From assembly GCA_964506075.1 (NCBI GenBank), contig CAZDKO010000004.1, forward strand, positions 134 to 64,133: 64,000 nucleotides of DNA, written 5' to 3'. Source of the stretch: an uncultured bacterium. Its GTDB lineage: Bacteria; CAZDME01; JAYEMH01. Positions 16,693 through 46,013 of the stretch are shown here, piece by piece (within the stretch, counting starts at the first letter, position 1; every line of letters starts with the position of its first letter). Under the pieces are notes generated by a model. It was not told the origin of the DNA. It saw only the letters and a program-made list of their open reading frames with translations, and did not search any database. Position numbers and translations under genes: made by a program.

Positions 16693-16715
16693 TTTATAAT
16701 TCCTCACTTTATTTA

Positions 16716-16832
16716 AAATGACTAATGATTAAAGTATCAATTTGGTTAACTGGTGAGCGGTTAATTGGTGAGTAGTAAATACTAACGACTAGATACTATT
16801 TAACCAATTAACCAGTTAACCAATCACCAATC
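16716..16832. repeat. Quasi-palindromic spacer (GGTTAACT GGTGAGC GGTTAATT GGTGAG ... TAACCAAT TAACCAGT TAACCAAT CACC)
   Basis: TGGTTAACTGG (16743-16753) is complementary to CCAGTTAACCA (16812-16822). GGTTAATTGG (16759-16768) is complementary to CCAATTAACC (16804-16813). The 19-mer at 16804-16822 is identical to 36916-36934. Confidence 0.85.
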
Positions 16833-16834
16833 GT

Positions 16835-17770: not shown

Positions 17771-20391
17771 TTTATAGTTTCCTTTTCTATTTCAATCAAA
17801 TCCGCCCATATTTTATTTTCACCTTCGTATATAAGGCGAAATTCCAGTATCTTATCTCTCTCAAGATTAAAAGGAAAAGAAAAATTCTGGTAAGTCCCGG
17901 CTTTTTTAAAATCTGTACCGCTGATTACCTTTTGCCCCGCTTTTTTTCTTCCCAAATCCGTAGCCACTTCTAACTGTGCCAGAGACGATTTACTCAAATG
18001 ATCTGTTTTTAAACGAAATGAAATCCTATAGGCACCTTTGCTATATCGTCTATAAGGCCCGAAAAGAACCTCTTTCTCCGGGGTAAAACCACGGGAAAAT
18101 AAAATGGCTTTGCCGTCCGACGCCTCTTTATCGTCAACAACCACTCCGCGATAATAAAGTTTTTCCGCCTCATAAGTGAACAGAGGATCGCTTTCTTCCG
18201 CCGGCAAAATATAAATACATTCTACCCAGATATTGGATTGACTTAAATAATTCAAGTGAAATTCCAGAAAAAGCGGGGCTTTCTCGTCAAAGTAAATAAT
18301 AAAGTCCTGATAAACTCCAGGTTTTTCAAAGGCAGTTCCTTTTATTTCTTTGATTTCAGAAACTCCGTGACTATTATCTCCTCCTTTTATATCCAGAACG
18401 GCAACCGGCTTATCTATGGTATTATCGTCCGTTTTCAAACGGAAAATAGCCTTATAATGTCCCCGGGGAAAAACCTGCTGCCGCCCGAAAATAAGGTATC
18501 CGGGACGGTCAGTTTTTCTGGAAGCAAAAAGAGCCTCGCCTCCTTCAGCTTCCGGGTCAGGAACCAACCTCCCCACACGGTGCTTCAACTGATGAGCCCA
18601 TTTGACCACCCCTATTTCCCAGATTTTTTGAACCTCTTTTTCTTTTAAGAGCGGTTTATTTCTCACTTCAAAAAGCCATAGAAAATTATCGTGGGCAATA
18701 AAGTCAAGATAGGATGAATCCATCAGCCTGTTAACCGAATAGCTGGAAGGATAATGGCTTACCTTTTGCGGAAAAGCATTTTCATGAAAAATAATATATT
18801 TAACCTGTAGTCTCTGTAAAAGTTCATATTCACTTTCGGTTAAATCACCCAGATTTAAACTAATCAGGGGATAAAATATCTTATCCACGTATTCCTGAGG
18901 CACTAAAGGATAATAGCCGTTAATGATTTTCACCCGGGTGATAGTCACGTAGTATAAATAGATGGAAGACCAGGCTGTATCTCCGGGCCAGAGCGGAAGT
19001 TCTAAAAGTTTTTTGTCTCCGGCATTTTCCCTGACTATTTTATAAATCCCGTTATCCTTATCAAAAAGACTGATGCCGATTTTAGAGTCGGCATTGTAAT
19101 CAAAAAATACCGCTCCGGAAAAAAATATACCGGTCAAGATTAAAACTGCTCTTCGTAAACCGGTTTTACTTATCCGGTCAAATAAACCGACAATCCCTCT
19201 AATCCCGTAGCCGCTTAATATAGCCAGACACATAAAATTGATAACGATTATCCTGCCGGGAACACGCGGATAATTAAAATAAGGAATGTATTTGTAGCAA
19301 AAATTATAAACGGGAAAGACGTCACTTAAATTCGTCCCTAAAGCCAGAATTAAACTTATAATCAATCCTGCGCTAAAAAAAAGCAGGTTGATTTTTTCTT
19401 CGTATACCTTAATTCCTTTTCCGGACCTGAAAAGATTAAAAATCAAACCCAGAAAAGCTAAACTCAACGCTACGCCGCCTGCATAGATATTTTTCTCTGA
19501 ATCCGTATTCCCCCGGCAGAATAAATCTTTTATCTGCGGTGAATAAATGCTCACTTCCGAAAGCCTTCTCCCCTTCTGGGCGATAGAAGAACTGATCTCA
19601 ATATCCTTTAAGAACATCGCAAAAATAAAAACAATAAATAACGAGAGAAAAACAGGCAGATATGATTTGAACAGTTGCGTTTTAACATTTAAGTTTTCGG
19701 CCTTCCAGTTAGCCAGACTGGTAACCGTCCTTATGGGTAGCCATATTAAGGTAAAAAGAGTAAGGTAATAAAGCAGATGATACTCAATCAAAGCGCAGGT
19801 AAAAAGACAGAAAAAATAAATCAGGGCGAATTTCCATTTCCCGCTGGCAAAAAGTCTCTCTATGGAAAAGACAGCCAGAGGCGCTATTCCCCAGAGAAAA
19901 CCATTGGTGTGTCCTCCTAAAAGCTGAGAAAGACTGAAAGGAGCCAGGGTATAAATTAAAGCGGCGATAAAAGAAGGAAAATATCTTTGAAGATAAATCC
20001 GGGCTAATAAAAACATCGCTATACCCGAAAAGATTATGGATAAAATTAACACCAGGTTATAGGCAAAAGCCCCGCCTAAAAACGAAAATATAACAAAAGG
20101 GATTGAAAGAGGAAAGCGCCTGACGGTAAAGATTTTTATGCCGTCAACGCTGAATTCATACGGGTCAAAAAAGAAAGGATGTTCTCCCCGCAAAGCATCC
20201 CTGGCTAACCAGAAATGATAATAAAGTTGCAGGTGGTCTCCCTGCTGCATTGATTGGACTTCCCAGCCCTTCTCGGGGGTTCTGGTGTAAGGTATTCCCC
20301 GGTTAAAATAATAAATTAAAGGCCGGGTAATTATTAAACTCAAACAGAAGAAAATTAAAGCCGTTAAAATAATTTTATGTCTATTATTCAT
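17767..20391 (-). CDS. Polytopic membrane protein (GT-C-like) with two C-terminal copies of an uncharacterised ~130-aa 'FGPY...G.Y' domain
   Basis: 874 aa. The N-terminal ~560 aa are multi-TM, with the motif LIITRPL...QGDHLQLYYHFW after TM1. The C-terminal tandem duplication is LIFGRQQVFPRGHYKAIFRLKTDD... / VLFGPYRRYSKGAYRISFRLKTDH.... Confidence 0.55.
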   Translation of the reverse strand: MNNRHKIILTALIFFCLSLIITRPLIYYFNRGIPYTRTPEKGWEVQSMQQGDHLQLYYHFWLARDALRGEHPFFFDPYEFSVDGIKIFTVRRFPLSIPFVIFSFLGGAFAYNLVLILSIIFSGIAMFLLARIYLQRYFPSFIAALIYTLAPFSLSQLLGGHTNGFLWGIAPLAVFSIERLFASGKWKFALIYFFCLFTCALIEYHLLYYLTLFTLIWLPIRTVTSLANWKAENLNVKTQLFKSYLPVFLSLFIVFIFAMFLKDIEISSSIAQKGRRLSEVSIYSPQIKDLFCRGNTDSEKNIYAGGVALSLAFLGLIFNLFRSGKGIKVYEEKINLLFFSAGLIISLILALGTNLSDVFPVYNFCYKYIPYFNYPRVPGRIIVINFMCLAILSGYGIRGIVGLFDRISKTGLRRAVLILTGIFFSGAVFFDYNADSKIGISLFDKDNGIYKIVRENAGDKKLLELPLWPGDTAWSSIYLYYVTITRVKIINGYYPLVPQEYVDKIFYPLISLNLGDLTESEYELLQRLQVKYIIFHENAFPQKVSHYPSSYSVNRLMDSSYLDFIAHDNFLWLFEVRNKPLLKEKEVQKIWEIGVVKWAHQLKHRVGRLVPDPEAEGGEALFASRKTDRPGYLIFGRQQVFPRGHYKAIFRLKTDDNTIDKPVAVLDIKGGDNSHGVSEIKEIKGTAFEKPGVYQDFIIYFDEKAPLFLEFHLNYLSQSNIWVECIYILPAEESDPLFTYEAEKLYYRGVVVDDKEASDGKAILFSRGFTPEKEVLFGPYRRYSKGAYRISFRLKTDHLSKSSLAQLEVATDLGRKKAGQKVISGTDFKKAGTYQNFSFPFNLERDKILEFRLIYEGENKIWADLIEIEKETIK

Positions 20392-22352
20392 TGAACCCTC
20401 TTGGTTGAGGCTTCTATTCCATATACCTCAAATTCATATATTGACCACCAAAAAATTTTATCCTCTCCGGTTTGCGTTATTTTTATAAATCTGGCCCGGT
20501 GAGGTTCAAAACAAATTTCTAATTTCGCTCTTTCTCCACCCCAGATGGGATGAAATTTTCCCCAGTGTAAGGGCCCGAAAATAATGTCTAAGGATTCAAC
20601 CTCACGCCAGGTTTTCCCGTCCGGTGACGTGGAAAAAATATAGCCGTGAGGATAATCAGTCACTGAATCATCAAGGTCTAACATTACCCGGCAAATCTCC
20701 TCTTCCCTGCCCAGGTCCATCTCAAAATACATTCCCGGTGACTGATGAATTCTGGTCGTCCATCGGGTTTCTAAATTACTATCCAGGGTATACTTAACTT
20801 CAGTCTGGTTAAAATTAGACTTTACAGAAGCGGTAGATAAATCCAATGTTTTTTCCGTTCTTTCTAAAGGCTTGAACCCGTAAAATAAAGTTGCGCCGTG
20901 AGCTGCCTCCATTTTATAGGATTCGGTACCGATACTCTCAAGCATCTGAATGAAATCTTCAGGAATTCCGGTAAAAAAAATAGCTGCATCTTTACTCCGG
21001 TTGGCGGCTTCAAGATATTCCGGATAACGACCGGGATAGAATTGGGTAAAGATTATCCTTTCCCGGGCATCGAAAGTGTACTGGTAAGCCATCCAGTAAT
21101 CATCCATATAAACGTATTTAATTCCCTTGTTTTCCAGAAATCCAAAAAATTCTTTTTTGTTCTTCTGGTCCCGTAAAAAAGCTTCTCTTTTTTCTTTATT
21201 TAAAAGGTCAATGGAAATAATATTCTGCTGGACGTTGGCTGTAAAAACAATACCTAAAACCAGAAAGGATAATTTTTTGTATTTATTCCCCAGACCGGCG
21301 ATAAAATAAGCCAGATAAACCGGCAAGCATAAATATAAAACCAGCAGGTATCTACAGGTATTAGTTAAAGCATAGCCGCTTAAGATATAAATCAATATAA
21401 ACACCAGAAAAAAAACAATAAACATTTCCATTCCGTTACTTTCTCTTAAAGACAGTCTCATTAAATTTAATAGTCCTTTTAAACGGTCTTTGAAAACATA
21501 GAGGAAAGCAGCCAGGTAAAGAACCAGAAGCATCTGGGAGAGAAAAGGAAGATAGACTGTCCGCGGTTCTGATTTTACCACCCCCATAATTACCGGTAAC
21601 CCAATGATAAAAAGTTTTTCCAGCGCTAAACCGATATCGGTAAATTTATTTTCTCCCAGGGTTTTAAAGGGGAGGAAATCGTTCTTAAAGCAGTATAACC
21701 AGAAAGGACTGCTCCCGACAAAAAAACCAAAAAGGAAATTTAAAAACCGGCGGGTAAAAAATATAAGCTTCTGGCGAAGAAAAAGGAAAAAAAGACTGGT
21801 TAAAATAAAATAAATACTTTGATAATTCGTCCACCAGGCAAGACCGCAGACTAAACCGAGCAGAAAAAAACGCCGCCCTGAATTTTTCTTCTTTGCTTCA
21901 TAGACTATCCGGTAAGTAAGATAGAAGACGACTGCTCCTAAAACTAAATTCTCAACGTAATTAGCCCGGGCTAAAACGGTATTAACTGCGAGATACACCG
22001 GCGGGACAGCGGTAAATAGAAGGGTTAGAATTCCGACTTTTTCTCCAAAAATTCTTCTGGCCAGTATATACATCAAAATCATAAAAAGAATGGATTCCAG
22101 AACCGGAACAATGTTTAAAGTATAACGAGAAACCCCGAAGATAGCAAAAAACACACTTACCAGATATGCCTCAATCGCCCCGCAATAATCCTGGTCCCAG
22201 AAAAAAGTCGGAAATTCACCTTTTAAAATATGCATCGCCATCAGTCCGGTAACGGCCATATCCGAGTCCATAACCGGCAGGGCCCAGTGAAGAAGACGCA
22301 GAATAACACCCAGGGTGATAATTATGAACACTAATTTTCTGTTTTTTAACAT
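20388..22352 (-). CDS. ArnT/PMT-like GT-C glycosyltransferase fused to a C-terminal discoidin (F5/8 type C) domain
   Basis: 654 aa. N-terminal multi-TM region with DSDMAVTGLMAMHILKGEFP and a WWTNY motif. The last ~150 aa read LDSNLETRWTT...GMYFEMDLG...FSTSPDGKTW...ARFIKITQTGEDKIFWWSIYEFEVYG. Confidence 0.7.
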   Translation of the reverse strand: MLKNRKLVFIIITLGVILRLLHWALPVMDSDMAVTGLMAMHILKGEFPTFFWDQDYCGAIEAYLVSVFFAIFGVSRYTLNIVPVLESILFMILMYILARRIFGEKVGILTLLFTAVPPVYLAVNTVLARANYVENLVLGAVVFYLTYRIVYEAKKKNSGRRFFLLGLVCGLAWWTNYQSIYFILTSLFFLFLRQKLIFFTRRFLNFLFGFFVGSSPFWLYCFKNDFLPFKTLGENKFTDIGLALEKLFIIGLPVIMGVVKSEPRTVYLPFLSQMLLVLYLAAFLYVFKDRLKGLLNLMRLSLRESNGMEMFIVFFLVFILIYILSGYALTNTCRYLLVLYLCLPVYLAYFIAGLGNKYKKLSFLVLGIVFTANVQQNIISIDLLNKEKREAFLRDQKNKKEFFGFLENKGIKYVYMDDYWMAYQYTFDARERIIFTQFYPGRYPEYLEAANRSKDAAIFFTGIPEDFIQMLESIGTESYKMEAAHGATLFYGFKPLERTEKTLDLSTASVKSNFNQTEVKYTLDSNLETRWTTRIHQSPGMYFEMDLGREEEICRVMLDLDDSVTDYPHGYIFSTSPDGKTWREVESLDIIFGPLHWGKFHPIWGGERAKLEICFEPHRARFIKITQTGEDKIFWWSIYEFEVYGIEASTKRVQ

Positions 22353-22363
22353 TGTCCCTAAAT

Positions 22364-22480
22364 AGTTAACCGGTTATCCGGTTTGCCGGTTGGCCAGTTT
22401 GGTTAATTGGTTAAATGGTGACTAGTTAATTAACAAAACAGTTATTGTAGTCACCAATTAACCATTTACCGTTTAACCAG
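22364..22480. repeat. Tandem octamer array GGTTATCC GGTTTGCC GGTTGGCC ... GGTTAATT GGTTAAAT GGTGACTA, then complementary TTAACC words
   Basis: Units at 22372-22424 read directly. The 22-mer CCGGTTATCCGGTTTGCCGGTT (22370-22391) is identical to 37888-37909. The 18-mer at 22378-22395 is the reverse complement of 38586-38603. Confidence 0.9.
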
Positions 22481-22482
22481 AT

Positions 22483-23190
22483 TCATTTTCCCGCTCTAAT
22501 CTTTAACACGGTCATTATGTAGCATAACAAATGTTTTAAAAAATTCGTCTTACTTCTTCCTGAATGACGCTCCTGATAAATCACCGGAACTTCAATTATG
22601 GAAAGTCTTTTTTTAGCGGCTTCATAAAGAAAGCGAATAAAGTAATCCCCGTAACCGGTAAAGATTTTATCACGATTTAAACTATTAATTACTCTCCTTG
22701 AAGTAGCGAAGAATCCACATAAATTATCATTGGTTTTAATCTGCAAAATAAGTTTTACAAAAGCATTAAAAATATAACTTCCCCAGTATCTGAATTGAGA
22801 CCCTTTCATCCCCCCGCCGGCTACGAATCGTGAACCTACGGCGATATCAAATTTAGTAAGCTGATAAATCAACATGGGAATCACCTGCGGGTCATGATTA
22901 AAGTCAGTATCCATAAAAACTAAAATCTCTCCATCGGCTTTTTCTATCCCGAACTTGATGGCTGTAGCTAATCCTCTTTCATTTTTTCTGATATAAATTT
23001 TTACGGATGAATTATTTTTAAAAGATTCCTCAACAATTCCGGCGGTCCTATCTGAACTATTATCATCAACCAGAACTATCTCTGTTTCTAAACCCGCTTT
23101 TTCGGTTACTTTAAATATTTCTTTAATCAGCTCAACAATATGCCCGGCTTCATTATAAGTCGGCAAAATAACGGAAATACGTTGCCTCAA
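22483..23190 (-). CDS. Polyprenol-phosphate sugar synthase, GT2 (DPM1/Ppm1-like, soluble)
   Basis: 235 aa. ISVILPTYNEAGHI, VDDNSSD, DTDFNHDP. TTG start with a GGGGAGA RBS 6 nt upstream. Confidence 0.75.
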   Translation of the reverse strand: MRQRISVILPTYNEAGHIVELIKEIFKVTEKAGLETEIVLVDDNSSDRTAGIVEESFKNNSSVKIYIRKNERGLATAIKFGIEKADGEILVFMDTDFNHDPQVIPMLIYQLTKFDIAVGSRFVAGGGMKGSQFRYWGSYIFNAFVKLILQIKTNDNLCGFFATSRRVINSLNRDKIFTGYGDYFIRFLYEAAKKRLSIIEVPVIYQERHSGRSKTNFLKHLLCYIMTVLKIRAGK

Positions 23191-35507: not shown

Positions 35508-35647
35508 TATTGGTGAGCAGTGAGTAATCAATACTGAATAGTCGCTAGTAGTTAGTATCTAGTAGACACTAAATACTCTTCACCAGCGATTATATCCTTT
35601 TTAACCAAGCAACCATTTAACCAATCACCAGTTAACCATTTAACTAA
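35508..35647. repeat. Eleven consecutive degenerate heptamers followed by TTAACC-type octamers
   Basis: TGGTGAG CAGTGAG TAATCAA TACTGAA TAGTCGC TAGTAGT TAGTATC TAGTAGA CACTAAA TACTCTT CACCAGC spans 35511-35587. Then TTAACCAA...TTAACCAT TTAACTAA TTAACCAG. Confidence 0.9.
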
Positions 35648-36835: not shown

Positions 36836-36851
36836 TTTAAATCCTTGGTAT

Positions 36852-36934
36852 TGGTTAACTGGTTAATTGGTAAATAGAAATCTAAAGTATAACCAATTGA
36901 TCGTTTAACCAATCACCAATTAACCAGTTAACCA
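36852..36934. repeat. Perfect 19-bp inverted repeat (TGGTTAACTGGTTAATTGG / CCAATTAACCAGTTAACCA) with 45-nt loop between wzm and wzt
   Basis: The arms at 36852-36870 and 36916-36934 are exact reverse complements, checked base by base. The right arm is identical to 16804-16822. Confidence 0.9.
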
Positions 36935-36935
36935 T

Positions 36936-37700
36936 CTAAAGCTCATCCGCGAAATAGTGTTCTAATTTAGAAAAAATTAAAAGTCCAAGAATCAAAATAA
37001 CCGCCGAAACCCCTAAAGAAATACTGAGCAGCTTCCAGCTGATTAAAGCCTGCCCGAGAAAGACAGTTCGGTATAAAGTCACCAGCGCCGCCATGGGATT
37101 CAAAAGATAAATTTTAAGCGCCCACTCCGGTACCATTTCTAAAGGATAAAGAACAGGAGTAAGGAAAAACCAGGCCAAAAGGGTTACACTTATAATATGT
37201 TCTGTATCCCGGAAATAGACGTTAGAACAGGAAATTAATAAAGACATCCCCAGGATAAATAAAACCTGAAAAATAATTACCAGCGGAAGAAAAATAAGGT
37301 TTATGGTAAAGTGGGTCTTGAAAATTACAAGAAGAGCAAAAAGAATAACCAGAGAGAGTAAAAAATTAATCAGATTAGCCAGAACCATAGAAAACGGGAG
37401 AATAAATCTGGGGAAATAAGTTTTCTTAACCAGATTGGTATTACCCGAGATTGAATTAACCGAATCACTCAGACACATTACAAAAAACTGCCAGGGCATA
37501 ATACCGGTTAAGAGCACCCTTATATCTATTTTCCATCTTAATATCCCGATAAATATAAGATAAATAACTGTCATAAACAGCGGATTTAAAAGCGTCCAGA
37601 GAAATCCTAAAGTTGAACCCTTATACCGGATTTTCAGGTTCCTTAAAACCAGATTCCAGATTAACTGGCGTCTCTTGATTATTTCACTAAATTCACTCAT
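36936..37700 (-). CDS. wzm: ABC-2 type polysaccharide exporter permease (Wzm/TagG type)
   Basis: 254 aa with 6 TM helices. Typical N-terminus LIWNLVLRNLKIRYKGSTLGFLWTLLNP. Adjacent to wzt. Confidence 0.85.
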   Translation of the reverse strand: MSEFSEIIKRRQLIWNLVLRNLKIRYKGSTLGFLWTLLNPLFMTVIYLIFIGILRWKIDIRVLLTGIMPWQFFVMCLSDSVNSISGNTNLVKKTYFPRFILPFSMVLANLINFLLSLVILFALLVIFKTHFTINLIFLPLVIIFQVLFILGMSLLISCSNVYFRDTEHIISVTLLAWFFLTPVLYPLEMVPEWALKIYLLNPMAALVTLYRTVFLGQALISWKLLSISLGVSAVILILGLLIFSKLEHYFADEL

Positions 37701-37720
37701 ATTTTGTCTCTCAAGATTTT

Positions 37721-37912
37721 ACCGCCTGCCCGCCACGCTTTTTGGCGGGCCTGCCTCGCCTTTTGGCGGGTGGTTTCTGCTTTCTATAATAGATATAGAC
37801 CCTATAATATAAAAGCGGGAGTTAAAAGTCAAGGGAAAAGCCTTTGTCGGTTAACCGGTCAAATTAGTTTACCGGTTGGCCAGTTAGCCGGTTATCCGGT
37901 TTGCCGGTTAAT
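37721..37912. repeat. Composite spacer: 48-nt GC-rich element (37725-37772) plus CCGGTT-word array (37848-37912)
   Basis: GCCCGCCA (37728-37735) pairs with TGGCGGGC (37743-37750). 43 of 48 nt match 48352-48399. The 22-mer at 37888-37909 matches 22370-22391. Confidence 0.9.
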
Positions 37913-37975
37913 CAAACAGAGTGGGAGGGTTTTACTGTTTAAACGCGGGGGCAAACTGAATAGAAATAATATGTT

Positions 37976-38506
37976 TTACCTTTGAAATTTACCTACCAGT
38001 TTAGTTTGTTCAATTATATGTTTTTCAATCGCTTTAAGAAGTTCACTCTTGGTTAAACCGGCTTTTAAATTAAGAACCGCATCCAAGGCATAAAGTTTAA
38101 AGAGATACCGATGAGGCGGGCCTGGCGGCGCACAAGGACCACCATAACCTGTTTCTCTAAAATCGGTTATTCCCTGTTTACTGCCGTCCGGTAAAATTTT
38201 TTGACTTTTTATCCCTTCTGAAAGATTACTGGTTTCTGCTGGGATATCATATATTATCCAATGCACCCAGTCTCCTCTCGGGGCATCCGGGTCATCACAG
38301 ATAAGAGCAAAACTTTCTGTTCCTTCCGGGACCCCGGACCAATTAAGCGGCGGTGAAATATTTTCTCCCCTACAGGTATATTTATCCGGGATAAAATCGT
38401 TATTTTCGAAAGCCGGGCTTTTTAATTCTAAAGCCATAATCTCACCTCCTTTAAACAATAATACCCATCCCACAACAATTAAGATTAAAAGATATTTTAA
38501 CCTCAT
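37976..38506 (-). CDS. YbhB/YbcL-family PEBP (Raf-kinase-inhibitor-like) protein, secreted or anchored
   Basis: DDPDAPRGDWVHW and GYGGPCAPPGPPHRYLFKLYALD motifs. ATG 38506 (MRLKYLLILIVVGW...) is preferred over the track's GTG at 38518. Confidence 0.85.
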   Translation of the reverse strand: MRLKYLLILIVVGWVLLFKGGEIMALELKSPAFENNDFIPDKYTCRGENISPPLNWSGVPEGTESFALICDDPDAPRGDWVHWIIYDIPAETSNLSEGIKSQKILPDGSKQGITDFRETGYGGPCAPPGPPHRYLFKLYALDAVLNLKAGLTKSELLKAIEKHIIEQTKLVGKFQR

Positions 38507-38518
38507 TATCTTCACCAC

Positions 38519-38619
38519 CTTCCAGTAGTTAGTAGACAGTAGTTAGTAGTCAGTAATTTTTAATCAGTTATCAGTTTTCAGAACTGGCCAACCGGCAAAC
38601 CGGAGAACCGGTTAACCGA
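38519..38619. repeat. Eight tandem heptamers (TAGTTAG TAGACAG TAGTTAG TAGTCAG TAATTTT TAATCAG TTATCAG TTTTCAG) plus inverted CCGGTT-word block
   Basis: Heptamer units at 38526-38581. GGCCAACCGGCAAACCGG (38586-38603) is the reverse complement of 22378-22395. Confidence 0.9.
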
Positions 38620-39285
38620 TTAACCAAACTTAGCCGTAAGGATTAAATCTCTGCCAATTTTTTCTATTTTTTCAAATTTTAAATTTAGACTTTTACTGAT
38701 GTCGGAAGTTCCCAGATTGCCAATTGCCTCTATACCCTTTCCCATAATTTTCGGAGAAATTATAACCACCATTCTATCGGCCAGTTTATTCTTGATAAAA
38801 GACGTGATAATTTTACTTCCGCCTTCAACCAGAACATTCTTTATTTTTAAACTTTTAAGGAAACTTAAAAGTTTATATAAATCTACCTCACCATCTTTAT
38901 CGACCGGCACAAAAACTATCTTGACACCTCGTTTTCTTAAAAGTTCGGCTCTTTTCTTTGAAGCCTTCCGGGTGGTGACAATTATTGTCCCCCCAGCCAT
39001 TTCGGAATTGATAATTTTTGCTTTTAAAGGAAGACGCAGTTGCGTATCAAGAATAATCCGGAGGGGTTGTTTTCCTTTGACCCGGCGGACGGTTAAAAGT
39101 GGATTGTCTTTTATGACCGTATTTATTCCTACCAGAATCGCTTGATGCCGGGCGCGTAATCGATGAGCGTACCGGCGGGCTGGTATTCCGCTAATCCACC
39201 GGGAATTTCCCTTTTGGTCAGCAATTTTTCCGTCTATCGTCTGAGCGTATTTAATGGTTATAAAAGGCCTGGTTCGTTTTATCAT
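38620..39285 (-). CDS. RibD C-terminal-domain reductase (stand-alone diaminohydroxyphosphoribosylaminopyrimidine reductase-like)
   Basis: 221 aa. ITIKYAQTIDGKIA, ILVGINTVIKDNPLLTVR, VLVEGGSKIITSF. No deaminase domain. Confidence 0.75.
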   Translation of the reverse strand: MIKRTRPFITIKYAQTIDGKIADQKGNSRWISGIPARRYAHRLRARHQAILVGINTVIKDNPLLTVRRVKGKQPLRIILDTQLRLPLKAKIINSEMAGGTIIVTTRKASKKRAELLRKRGVKIVFVPVDKDGEVDLYKLLSFLKSLKIKNVLVEGGSKIITSFIKNKLADRMVVIISPKIMGKGIEAIGNLGTSDISKSLNLKFEKIEKIGRDLILTAKFG

Positions 39286-39288
39286 CTT

Positions 39289-39600
39289 TTAGTAGTCAGT
39301 GGTTATCGGTTAACCGGTTAGCCGGTTTACCGGTTTAACTAAAATGCCTAATTCTAAAATGACTAATAAGAAAACAGAAACCAGAGTACAGAGAACAGAA
39401 AAAATTCTATTTTGGTCATTTGAGCATTTAGACATTTATTCGTCATTACCTGCCTGCCGCCCGCCTGTCACCTGCCTGTCGGCAGACAGGGAGTACAGTT
39501 TACAGAAAAAAATTATTTTAAAAGTTCTAATCTGTTCTCCGCACCCTATTTTTTTTACTTTGTTTTTTTCTGTTATCCGTAATCTGTTATCTGTTCTCTA
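39289..39600. repeat. 312-bp nested spacer: CCGGTT words, ACAGA/TCTGTT inverted heptamer arms, central GC-rich CCTG-word hairpin
   Basis: GAGAACAGA (39391-39399) is complementary to TCTGTTCTC at 39531-39539 and 39590-39598. CTGTTAT CCGTAAT CTGTTAT CTGTTCT spans 39570-39597. CCTGTC-GGCA-GACAGG spans 39475-39490. Confidence 0.85.
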
Positions 39601-39603
39601 AAT

Positions 39604-40293
39604 TTAATCAACAAATCTATATTTAATCAAGACCCATAAAGAAGAAAACCCATCACGCCAGGTAATCTTTTTCCCCTCGTGAAATTTCCTGCCCAGGTAA
39701 CTTATAGGCACCTCTTTAATGTGAACTCCTTTTTTAAGAATTTTTGCCGTTATTTCCGGTTCAATCTCAAACTGATTGGATTTCAGGTTCAAACTTTTAA
39801 GCAAAGAAGTTTGAACCATTTTATAGCAGGTTTCCATATCGGTAAGCCTGGAATGATATAAAGAATTGGTAATAAAGGAAAGAAAACGGTTCCCGCACCA
39901 GTGAAGAGCCGACATATTTAAAGTCCCGGTTAAGAATCTTGAACCGTATATGGCCCGGTCATTTTCTGTTTTTACTTCCGTAATAAGTTTAAGATATTCC
40001 CGGGGGTCGTATTCCAGGTCCCCGTCTTGAATAATTACATAATCTCCGGTGACATAATTTAAAGCTGTTCTGATAGCCGCTCCCTTGCCTTTATTTCTTT
40101 CGTGAAATATAACCTTAAAATTCTGTTTGTCCGCTGTTTGTTCTTTACTTTTCAAAATCTCTCTTGTTCCATCCGTAGAACAATCATCAATAACAATAAT
40201 CTCCTTTTCTATATCAAGAGAACCCACCTTTTCCAGGATTTTTCGGATGGTTGCTTTTTCGTTAAAAATGGGCATGATAACCGATAATTTCAA
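39604..40293 (-). CDS. Glycosyltransferase family 2 (DPM1-like polyprenol-phosphate sugar synthase candidate)
   Basis: 229 aa. LSVIMPIFNEKATI, IDDCSTDGT, QDGDLEYDP. The TTG start overlaps the upstream TGA. Confidence 0.75.
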   Translation of the reverse strand: MKLSVIMPIFNEKATIRKILEKVGSLDIEKEIIVIDDCSTDGTREILKSKEQTADKQNFKVIFHERNKGKGAAIRTALNYVTGDYVIIQDGDLEYDPREYLKLITEVKTENDRAIYGSRFLTGTLNMSALHWCGNRFLSFITNSLYHSRLTDMETCYKMVQTSLLKSLNLKSNQFEIEPEITAKILKKGVHIKEVPISYLGRKFHEGKKITWRDGFSSLWVLIKYRFVD

Positions 40294-45351: not shown

Positions 45352-46013
45352 TATGTTCCTTTTTTTGGCCTTCCTCTTGATCTAAGGGTAGATTCCAATC
45401 CCAGTTTTTTACTTACTTGCACTTGCCATCTTAATGTACCATAGGGAGATTGACGATGAACACTCTGACGAATGTTCTGTAATTCTTTCTCTGTTAGTGG
45501 TTCATCTACATATCTATTCCAATTTTGAGTCAGTTCTATGGGAGTTTTATCAACCAAGAAGGGCGACTTTTCACCAATAAGCTCTCTATGAGAAGACCAT
45601 ATCCACTCCTTAGCCGAACCAACCAAAGCAGCCCTCACTGGGTTAACCTCAACATATCTCATCACTGTCAGTAAATGATTGTCATTTTGTATAATAAAAC
45701 TCTTAAAACGTCCTTGCCAAATATGCCCACTAGATCCATAATGCCGATGATAACGGCGCACATGACTTGTCAGCAGCCATTGCATAGATTTGCTTAGTTC
45801 TTCAGCCTGAACAGGCATCACAACTAGATGAAAATGGTTTGGCATTAAACAATATGCAAAAATTTTTATGGCATACTGAGCTTTTGTTTTCACCATTAAA
45901 TCAATGAAAGCCTCATAATCCTGATCTTTATGAAAGACTACTTGCTTGCCATTTCCACGGTTAAGCACGTGATAAATAAAACCACTCCTTAAACCTCTTG
46001 TAATCCTTGGCAT
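45351..46013 (-). CDS. REP-associated tyrosine transposase (RAYT), IS200/IS605 TnpA-like HUH/Y1 enzyme
   Basis: 220 aa. YHVLNRGN, CLMPNHFHLVV (HUH) and RYVEVNPVRAALV (catalytic Tyr motif). The ORF is intact. The 663 bp contain no CCGG tetramer, although CCGG is very frequent in the flanking genes. Confidence 0.85.
   Translation of the reverse strand: MPRITRGLRSGFIYHVLNRGNGKQVVFHKDQDYEAFIDLMVKTKAQYAIKIFAYCLMPNHFHLVVMPVQAEELSKSMQWLLTSHVRRYHRHYGSSGHIWQGRFKSFIIQNDNHLLTVMRYVEVNPVRAALVGSAKEWIWSSHRELIGEKSPFLVDKTPIELTQNWNRYVDEPLTEKELQNIRQSVHRQSPYGTLRWQVQVSKKLGLESTLRSRGRPKKGT

Follow-up and report, generated by a model that had tools for sequence, protein, structure and literature searches.

How does a 130-nt spacer built of short repeats come to lie between two genes that, in a related bacterium, overlap by a stop and a start codon? 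The question is raised by a glycan operon of an uncultured bacterium, in which blocks of CCGGTT octamers occur in four spacers and in both orientations. Few sequence features of bacterial genomes are as over-represented, and few as poorly understood, as intergenic repeats with a period of 7 to 8 nt. This locus offers a clean case, in which the repeat hairpin sits precisely where stop and start codons overlap by 4 nt in relatives. The findings bear on a question that has stood since the STRR repeats were first described. The window analyzed here is the whole stretch of 64,000 nt; the genome containing it (G000) comprises 1.74 Mb, and G001 and G002 are two other genomes of its family.

The CCGGTT blocks are confirmed to be real. 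Every string quoted in an earlier note on this DNA was found where the note had placed it, including the 22-mer CCGGTTATCCGGTTTGCCGGTT at 22370-22391 with its exact second copy at 37888-37909, TTAACCGGTTA at both 22366-22376 and 39310-39320, and GGTTAACCGGT at 37849-37859. As had been noted, position 22366 is 14 nt upstream of the ATG (22352) of a gene for a PMT_2 plus F5/8-type-C protein. An inverted copy given as 18 nt is present and proved to be 22 nt long (CCGGTTTGCCGGTTGGCCAGTT at 22378-22399, whose reverse complement stands at 38582-38603), and the 8-nt phasing described for 22372-22424 holds with one slip, a 5-nt unit AGTTT at 22396-22400. The interpretation offered with these observations is partly supported. 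The dispersed family that it proposed exists: many contigs carry GGTT-type octamer arrays between genes, about 35 of them in about 26 spacers, in either orientation and with a conserved core. Of the two identities suggested for it, the phased operator array has no support and the MITE-like element failed the defining tests, as discussed below.

The genes that flank the arrays are all on the - strand and form the glycan operon; gene positions here and in Table 1 are crude open reading frame calls. Two + strand frames, 37704-37985 (93 amino acids) and 39344-39601 (85 amino acids), traverse repeat spacers. Neither matches any Pfam family, and both are probably spurious and created by the repeats, which explain both such frames and the breaks of contigs at spacers.

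Table 1. Repeat features and genes of the glycan operon, with other repeat features of the window, in window positions unless a contig (C) of G000 is named
Feature	Position	Strand	Remarks
GGTT/GGTGA/AGT modular hairpin spacer	16708-16834	-	z -5.1
PMT_2/discoidin ArnT-like protein	20388-22352	-	
Whole intercistronic spacer, 130 nt	22353-22482	-	derived insertion
GC-type octamer array AGTTAACC GGTTATCC GGTTTGCC GGTTGGCC AGTTTG	22362-22401	+	AACCGG in the mRNA (genes on -); ends 10 nt before the ArnT-like start at 22352
AT-type arm GGTTAATT GGTTAAAT GGTGACTA	22401-22424	+	one side of the spacer hairpin
Hairpin loop	22425-22447	.	
Complementary arm TAGTCACC AATTAACC ATTTACC GTTTAACC	22448-22478	-	from folding; GGTT-type on the - strand; starts 4 nt past the GT2 stop codon (22483-22485) in mRNA sense
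GT2	22483-23190	-	
Spacer after wzt	35532-35647	-	AT-type octamers, then AGT/ACT heptamers
wzm-to-wzt spacer with AT-type GGTT hairpin	36836-36935	-	same super-family
ABC-2 permease	36936-37700	-	
GC-type array, PEBP-to-wzm spacer	37848-37911	+	GGTTAACCGGT block, then 6 units including the 22-mer; folds mainly on itself
PEBP	37976-38518	-	
Heptamer arrays AGTAGTT/AGTAGAC and ATCAGTT	38520-38579	+	ACT-type in the mRNA, including TAACTGA; extend to the PEBP ribosome-binding site; no complementarity to the adjoining octamer array
GC-type array GGTTAATC GGTTAACC GGTTCTCC GGTTTGCC GGTTGGCC AGTTCT	38580-38627	-	first units (38620-38627) code the final RibD_C residues and the TAA stop (38620-38622)
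RibD_C	38620-39285	-	
GC-type array GGTTATC GGTTAACC GGTTAGCC GGTTTACC GGTTTAAC	39299-39340	+	AACCGG in the mRNA; ends ~14-21 nt before the RibD_C ATG (39285)
GT2 (second)	39604-40293	-	
Inner AGT core, example loci	C1:11935, C35:3666, C4:3612 (window ~3479)		

Units and modules of the arrays

The GC-type octamers have the grammar CC-RGTT-DD. The 71 such units follow C-C-R-G-T-T-D-D, with C at only 2 of the 71 at each variable position and A, G, or T otherwise; the core is three quarters of the palindrome AACCGGTT, and two variable bases follow it. The AT-type unit reads T-T-GGTT-A-A. Across the whole genome, TRF reported 132 arrays of period 7 and 34 of period 8, while periods 3 to 6 and 9 to 11 gave 2 to 20, and about 28 of the 34 period-8 arrays have a GGTT-type core. 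Arrays in which GTT recurs in four or more units number 21 at period 8, versus 0 to 2 at other periods. A scan for [GA]GTT at period 8 returned 41 arrays on more than 15 contigs; 34 or 35 of the 41 are intergenic, and the outer end is mostly 5 to 25 nt from the end of a gene or overlaps it. Adjacent units are so seldom identical (3 of 109) that the arrays must be called degenerate, with no sign of recent slippage here.

The arrays stand well above chance. In the 64-kb window, CCGGTTNNCCGGTT with at most one mismatch has 19 matches where 0.31 are expected, and a pattern of three CCGGTTNN units has 26 matches in the 1.74-Mb genome versus 1 for the control pattern read backwards. The same three-unit pattern matches 7 times in G001, which belongs to the same family, and not once in 38 unrelated genomes. 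An excess over composition holds for these phased arrays and not for the bare hexamer: CCGGTT is 3.5-fold in excess of dinucleotide shuffles, an enrichment that we discarded because it is gone under a maximal-order Markov model (O/E 1.01). The special feature is the phased arrays only, not the hexamer word. An independent Logan assembly (run SRR10178537) contains the 22353-22482 spacer identical base for base, so the spacer is not an artefact of a single assembly.

When units anchored on RGT at steps of 7 or 8 nt are joined into chains, a fixed modular architecture appears. From the outside to the inside, an arm consists of GC octamers, then TTGGTTAA (AT) octamers together with GGTGAnn heptamers, then AGTnnnn heptamers, after which come the loop and the mirror image. 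This outer-to-inner order is followed by 32 chains and contradicted by 2, the last unit of each chain being truncated and its class less certain. The layers differ in how far they keep a specific sequence: the inner AGT core does so over about 40 nt per arm, and the octamer layers do not. No 30-mer is shared by any two octamer-array loci. Exact 22-mers are shared by 4 locus pairs versus 0.95 expected from the unit grammar (P = 0.02), and we rejected them as a sign of transposition, since they are barely above the grammar expectation and no 30-mer is in common.

Several observations concern the wider setting of these repeats in G000. The inner core, GGTGAGC AGTAAAT AGTCGTT AGTGAAT AGTATCT AGTATTT, loop, ACTAAAT ACTAACG ACT..., has 19 dispersed copies. 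The spacers at window positions 39340-39600 and at C2:39058-39556 have in common a nearly identical module of about 70 nt (AAATGCTCAAATGA.CAAAATAGAATTTTTTCTGTTCTCTGTACTCTGGTTTCTGTTTTCTTATTAGTCATT) and a GC-rich CTGCCTGCC/GGCAGGCAG hairpin, and both are mosaics of several dispersed modules. Contigs begin or end near GGTT arrays at C34:616-655, C38:293-332, C13:545-568, C32:61-92, and C90:2023-2046; the GGTT repeats probably break the assembly, in which case there are more copies than counted. Some repeat hairpins are immediate neighbors of tRNA genes (C57:2196-2465, C21:8591-10055, C26 at about 22238, and C18:9470-9781), and among these loci one PF05635 gene lies between two tRNA genes.

Exact arrays of three CCGGTTNN units are not confined to this lineage, occurring at no fewer than 120 loci (at least 120) of public genomes from many phyla. 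Hosts among the matches listed are Thermoanaerobaculia, Anaerolineae, Binatia, Rhodobacteraceae, Demequina, Desulfosudis, and Omnitrophota-labelled MAGs, and some of the arrays listed are perfect and reach 16 units.

Junction history, folding, and polarity

The same operon is present in G001, G002, and two metagenome contigs (L135 and L136). Between the GT2 and ArnT-like genes there are 130 nt here but only 7 nt in G002, L135, and L136, and in G001 the two genes share the 4 nt ATGA; overlaps of GT2 and ArnT-like genes are common among distant homologues as well. Because the junction is short or overlapping in the relatives and this genome still shows the ancestral ATGA where the spacer begins on the left, the 130 nt constitute a derived insertion between stop and start. 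An insertion event explains them more easily than gradual growth, given that no seed is visible at the junction in relatives. Other spacers of the operon have lengthened in the same way relative to G002, from 32 to 101 nt between RibD_C and PEBP, from an overlap to 100 nt between wzm and wzt, and from 11 to at least 116 nt between wzt and the next gene. At the four insertion junctions that could be defined against G001 and G002, no target-site duplication was found, the only sequence in common being the ATG that the gene requires. These comparisons draw on a phylum-level group of three genomes in the collection used, and a metagenome scan found no closer relative above 72% protein identity. 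Where G001 has a junction with a pure GC-type hairpin, the junction is occupied in G000 too in 4 of 5 cases, by other unit families. Either the elements have persisted for long while their units turned over, or permissive sites have been colonized more than once.

Another possibility at this locus was that PEBP and RibD_C form a gene cassette, as the arrays at 37848-37911 and 38580-38627 bracket PEBP and could pair with each other (duplex -58.5 kcal/mol). We rejected it because RibD_C and PEBP already adjoin in G002 across the 32-nt spacer; the pair of genes is thus ancestral, and it is the arrays around it that are new. G002 carries two extra genes (606 and 139 amino acids) between PEBP and wzm (C42:1573-3813). 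The window has in their place a repeat-filled spacer of 275 nt (37701-37975), which may be a deletion scar.

Folding calculations show that the elements should form stable stem-loops, either as RNA or as single-stranded DNA. The 130-nt spacer at 22353-22482 has a predicted energy of -40.7 kcal/mol (z -4.8) when folded as RNA and of -24 kcal/mol (z -4.7) when folded as DNA; the base of the predicted stem lies 3 nt past the stop codon of GT2 on one side and 17 nt short of the ArnT-like ATG on the other. The median fold z is -3.8 for 20 GGTT spacers and -0.6 for 40 control spacers free of such arrays (P 2.5e-5). The two orientations of an array differ in this respect: the G/T-rich orientation self-folds as RNA at -14.4 kcal per 100 nt versus -5.9 for the other (72:7, P 1e-13), since only strands rich in G and U can use wobble pairs. 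GC-type arrays pair mainly with themselves because AACCGGTT is palindromic, and this self-pairing means that lone arrays, such as those at 22362-22401 and 39299-39340, can exist without a partner. The former has no complementary partner in its own spacer, so the formation of a two-arm hairpin is not the whole story.

The arrays fill spacers between co-directional operon genes. They are absent from divergent, promoter-bearing spacers (0 of 35), a figure that we set aside as being without power, given that, on crude open reading frame calls, 94% of adjacent gene pairs in G000 (1249 of 1331) are co-directional. The gene strings on one strand are very long in this genome.

Within the spacers, the arms follow a polarity rule that we could quantify and that holds across all unit families of the genome. 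The G/T-rich, stop-rich (RGT) arm comes first and the A/C-rich, start-codon-free (ACY) arm last. Pairs of arms in the same spacer are arranged as GGTT...AACC in 19 of 19 cases, noncomplementary pairs included, the 19 hairpins being non-independent if they are copies of one element. Since a perfect inverted repeat is identical on both strands, the rule reflects which of two arrangements is used and says nothing of a bias between strands; being symmetric under reverse complementation, the polarity of paired arms does not by itself indicate transcription. Lone arms obey the same rule relative to the mRNA. For all 7- and 8-nt families in co-directional spacers taken together, G exceeds C by 65:20 in the first half and C exceeds G by 44:25 in the second (Fisher 6e-7). 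Among cross-phylum matches listed that have adjacent inverted partners, 7 are convergent, several of them from the same genomes, and 1 is truly divergent (Massilia, L081).

The two kinds of arm also differ in their consequences for translation. Stops in all three reading frames are present in 71 of 84 arms when these are read in the G/T-rich orientation, versus 34 of 84 for the complement; the G/T-rich orientation sometimes provides the upstream gene's own stop codon. Start codons (ATG/GTG/TTG) number 5.6 per 100 nt in the G/T-rich orientation, 0.3 in the complement, and 0.0 in AACC-oriented octamers; the A/C-rich arm is poor in G and ends 10 to 20 nt ahead of the next start codon. A rationale for the polarity in terms of translation is confounded with base composition. 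Three results are firm: that the insertion at the coupled junction is derived, that the modules have a fixed order, and that the arms keep the polarity given above.

Origin and possible role of the elements

The reading that we consider probable is that the CCGGTT arrays are the outer GC module of modular hairpins, which arose in this lineage within intercistronic junctions as REP-like stem-loops and belong to the STRR/LSSR class. The elements would have arisen in junctions that formerly overlapped or were a few bases long, and slippage, template switching, and gene conversion would account for their growth and turnover with no need of a transposase. From their location in intercistronic junctions they would be transcribed within a polycistronic mRNA, and by analogy with REP/BIME elements we infer that they may have a physical role there as intercistronic stem-loops. 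The stem could bring the stop codon near the next start codon and might protect the upstream segment of the mRNA. The G-U wobble offers a physical rationale for the arrangement of the arms: the first arm, after the stop codon, would fold and halt read-through, and the arm at the next ribosome-binding site would stay open and free of false starts. The fixed polarity may then be what remains after selection on translation.

An alternative explanation is that the spacers hold a non-autonomous, MITE- or REPIN-like hairpin element moved into gene junctions in trans by a transposase, for example, one of the Y1/RAYT type. Compared with two genera and two metagenome contigs, the 130-nt spacer is indeed inserted sequence, the inner module from GGTGAGC to AGTATCT is conserved in its dispersed copies, the sharing of 22-mers is slightly over expectation, and the genome has four Y1_Tnp genes. 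We nonetheless regard this as unlikely. The earlier suggestion of a MITE-like element failed at the four defined junctions, which lack a target-site duplication; the ends or terminal inverted repeats of the elements are not conserved, their length and unit number vary, and no 30-mer is common to any two octamer arrays. In G001 different unit families occupy the same junctions, and next to the Y1 genes lie not GGTT repeats but small hairpins of other kinds, such as TGTTCCAATGCGGGTTTGGAACA, so the REP/REPIN-RAYT form of the proposal was rejected with the MITE form. No flanking transposase gene or gene for a 23S rRNA intervening-sequence protein (IVP) was found at the octamer arrays. The genome does have eight PF05635 (23S rRNA IVS protein) genes, each bracketed by inverted heptamer arrays, but none of the eight is bracketed by GGTT or CCGGTT octamers, and the IVP link was dropped.

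The Y1_Tnp (IS200/RAYT-like) genes deserve a description of their own. They are located at 45648-45980 (-) in the window and at C22:29354-29617, C11:17819-18163, and C53:2921-3244 in G000. Each is flanked by its own short inverted hairpins, GGGGACAGGCTACTTTT ... AAAAGTAGCCTGTCACC at the window copy and TGTTCCAATGCGGGTTTGGAACA-type hairpins at the C22 copy, and genes and hairpins together look like a small REP/RAYT system. The end hairpins differ among the four genes and none of them is a GGTT array, which led us to reject a link between the two. The TGTTCCAATGCGGGTTTGGAACA hairpin also occurs inside three GGTT spacers (C3:23047-23244, C18:18677-18865, and C20:21109-21355), apparently as a nested guest.

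That the units are a multivalent array of sites, in which CCGGTT or RGT is bound by an operator or nucleoid DNA-binding protein or by an mRNA-leader regulator of the S1, Csp, or CsrA type, seems to us very unlikely. A conserved 6-nt core with a free 2-nt linker does resemble a recognition unit and not neutral decay, many phyla have the same core, AACCGG is the reading of three of the four window arrays immediately before a start codon or within a leader, and a hypothesis of this sort has precedent for the TAACTGA repeats (PMC4679880). Against this, a period of 8 bp puts successive sites on different faces of B-DNA, the arrays are intra-operon and occur at both gene ends, stop- as well as start-proximal, and in operons unrelated to one another, there is no regulator gene that regularly accompanies them, and orthologous junctions in relatives lack the spacer or the arrays or carry other unit families. 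The phased operator array of the earlier note has no support either, and the spacer at 22353-22482 contains no promoter-like site. An intrinsic terminator was likewise rejected: a scan of 22250-22600 found 0 terminator-like sites, the stem being followed by AAACUGGCC and not by a U-run. Rfam 15 gave 0 matches at gathering score in the whole window.

It is also conceivable, if doubtful, that the arrays are a functionless by-product, neutral simple-sequence DNA made by slippage in tolerant spacers, with no role as DNA or RNA. Lineage specificity and turnover between genera would suit such an origin, as would the many unit families that lie side by side and the known variability of the class in sequence and length (PMC4692102). 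It sits poorly with adjacent units that are almost never identical, with the strict polarity, the ordered modules, and arms that abut stop and start codons exactly, and with the occupation in G000 of 4 of the 5 junctions occupied in G001.

A bolder extension of the stem-loop reading, which we put forward as an improbable idea, is that the GGTT...AACC hairpins are self-contained intercistronic insertion modules that spread without a transposase, by hairpin-templated copying. The 5' side of such a module may bring stops in all frames and the 3' side a weakly folding leader free of start codons; the stem may keep stop and start adjacent, so that entry even into ATGA overlaps would cause no polar damage. 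If this were true, the CC-RGTT-DD grammar and the convergent polarity found across Thermoanaerobaculia, Anaerolineae, Omnitrophota-labelled MAGs, and others would reflect a shared mechanism and not chance.

Comparison with known repeat systems

Under the reading that we favor, of modular hairpins arisen within junctions, several known systems invite comparison, and the closest published matches are the Xanthomonas GGGAATC pairs, the cyanobacterial STRRs, and the TAACTGA repeats. REP/BIME and REPIN elements (PMC3116915) are similar in being dispersed extragenic palindromes within operons with the potential to form stem-loops in the mRNA, and RAYT-like Y1 genes are present in this genome; REPs, however, are single conserved palindromes of 20 to 40 nt that flank RAYT genes (PMC3116915), whereas the GGTT arrays are variable and tandem and do not flank the Y1 genes. 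The inverted heptamer arrays that flank PF05635 genes have the same arm grammar and polarity, but the GGTT hairpins are empty or enclose other repeat modules only.

The GGGAATC heptamers of Xanthomonas are intergenic, mostly between co-directional genes, with about 70 convergent opposite-strand pairs; they lie close to the 5' neighboring open reading frame and recur between the same gene pairs in related species, with variable length and sequence (PMC4692102). Like the arrays described here, the GGGAATC and GGGGAYT repeats of Xanthomonas and Nostoc (Rehm et al. 2015, PMC4692102) often form convergent, stem-loop-capable arrays near the end of an open reading frame. The unit here differs in being an 8-mer with a palindromic CCGG core and no G-tract, so that a G-quadruplex is not expected, and the arrays here are degenerate and nested with other unit families in a fixed order.

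The TAACTGA repeats of Beggiatoaceae, Cyanobacteria, and Bacteroidetes are direct repeats located just upstream of start codons, and a translational role has been proposed for them (MacGregor 2015, PMC4679880). Those repeats are direct, with one inverted case (PMC4679880), whereas most arrays here are one arm of an inverted pair. The likeness lies in the A/C-rich, ACT-type units that are found, in mRNA sense, a few nucleotides upstream of starts. TAACTGA itself is found between RibD_C and PEBP on the - strand, opposite the ATCAGTT units at about 38564-38577, of which it is the reverse complement.

STRR and LSSR are general names for a class of short intergenic repeats whose function is unexplained. 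STRR heptamers were reportedly described in heterocystous cyanobacteria by Mazel in 1990, and long simple sequence repeats (LSSR) dominated by heptamers are said to have been described in prokaryotes by Mrazek in 2007. The repeats of this genome resemble both in being dispersed intergenic tandem repeats of short units, with period 7 strongly over-represented among them (132 arrays). Periods 7 and 8 are in excess here, the arrays are mostly intergenic and dispersed, and orthologous junctions in G001 and G002 lack arrays or hold other unit families, which is the variability that marks the class. What the present case adds is an octamer member from a small uncultured lineage, with hairpin pairing, an order of modules, and a derived insertion at a coupled junction. 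The octamer arrays are, in sum, a further member, with a palindromic core, of the known and functionally unexplained class of intergenic 7- to 8-nt repeats (STRR/LSSR).
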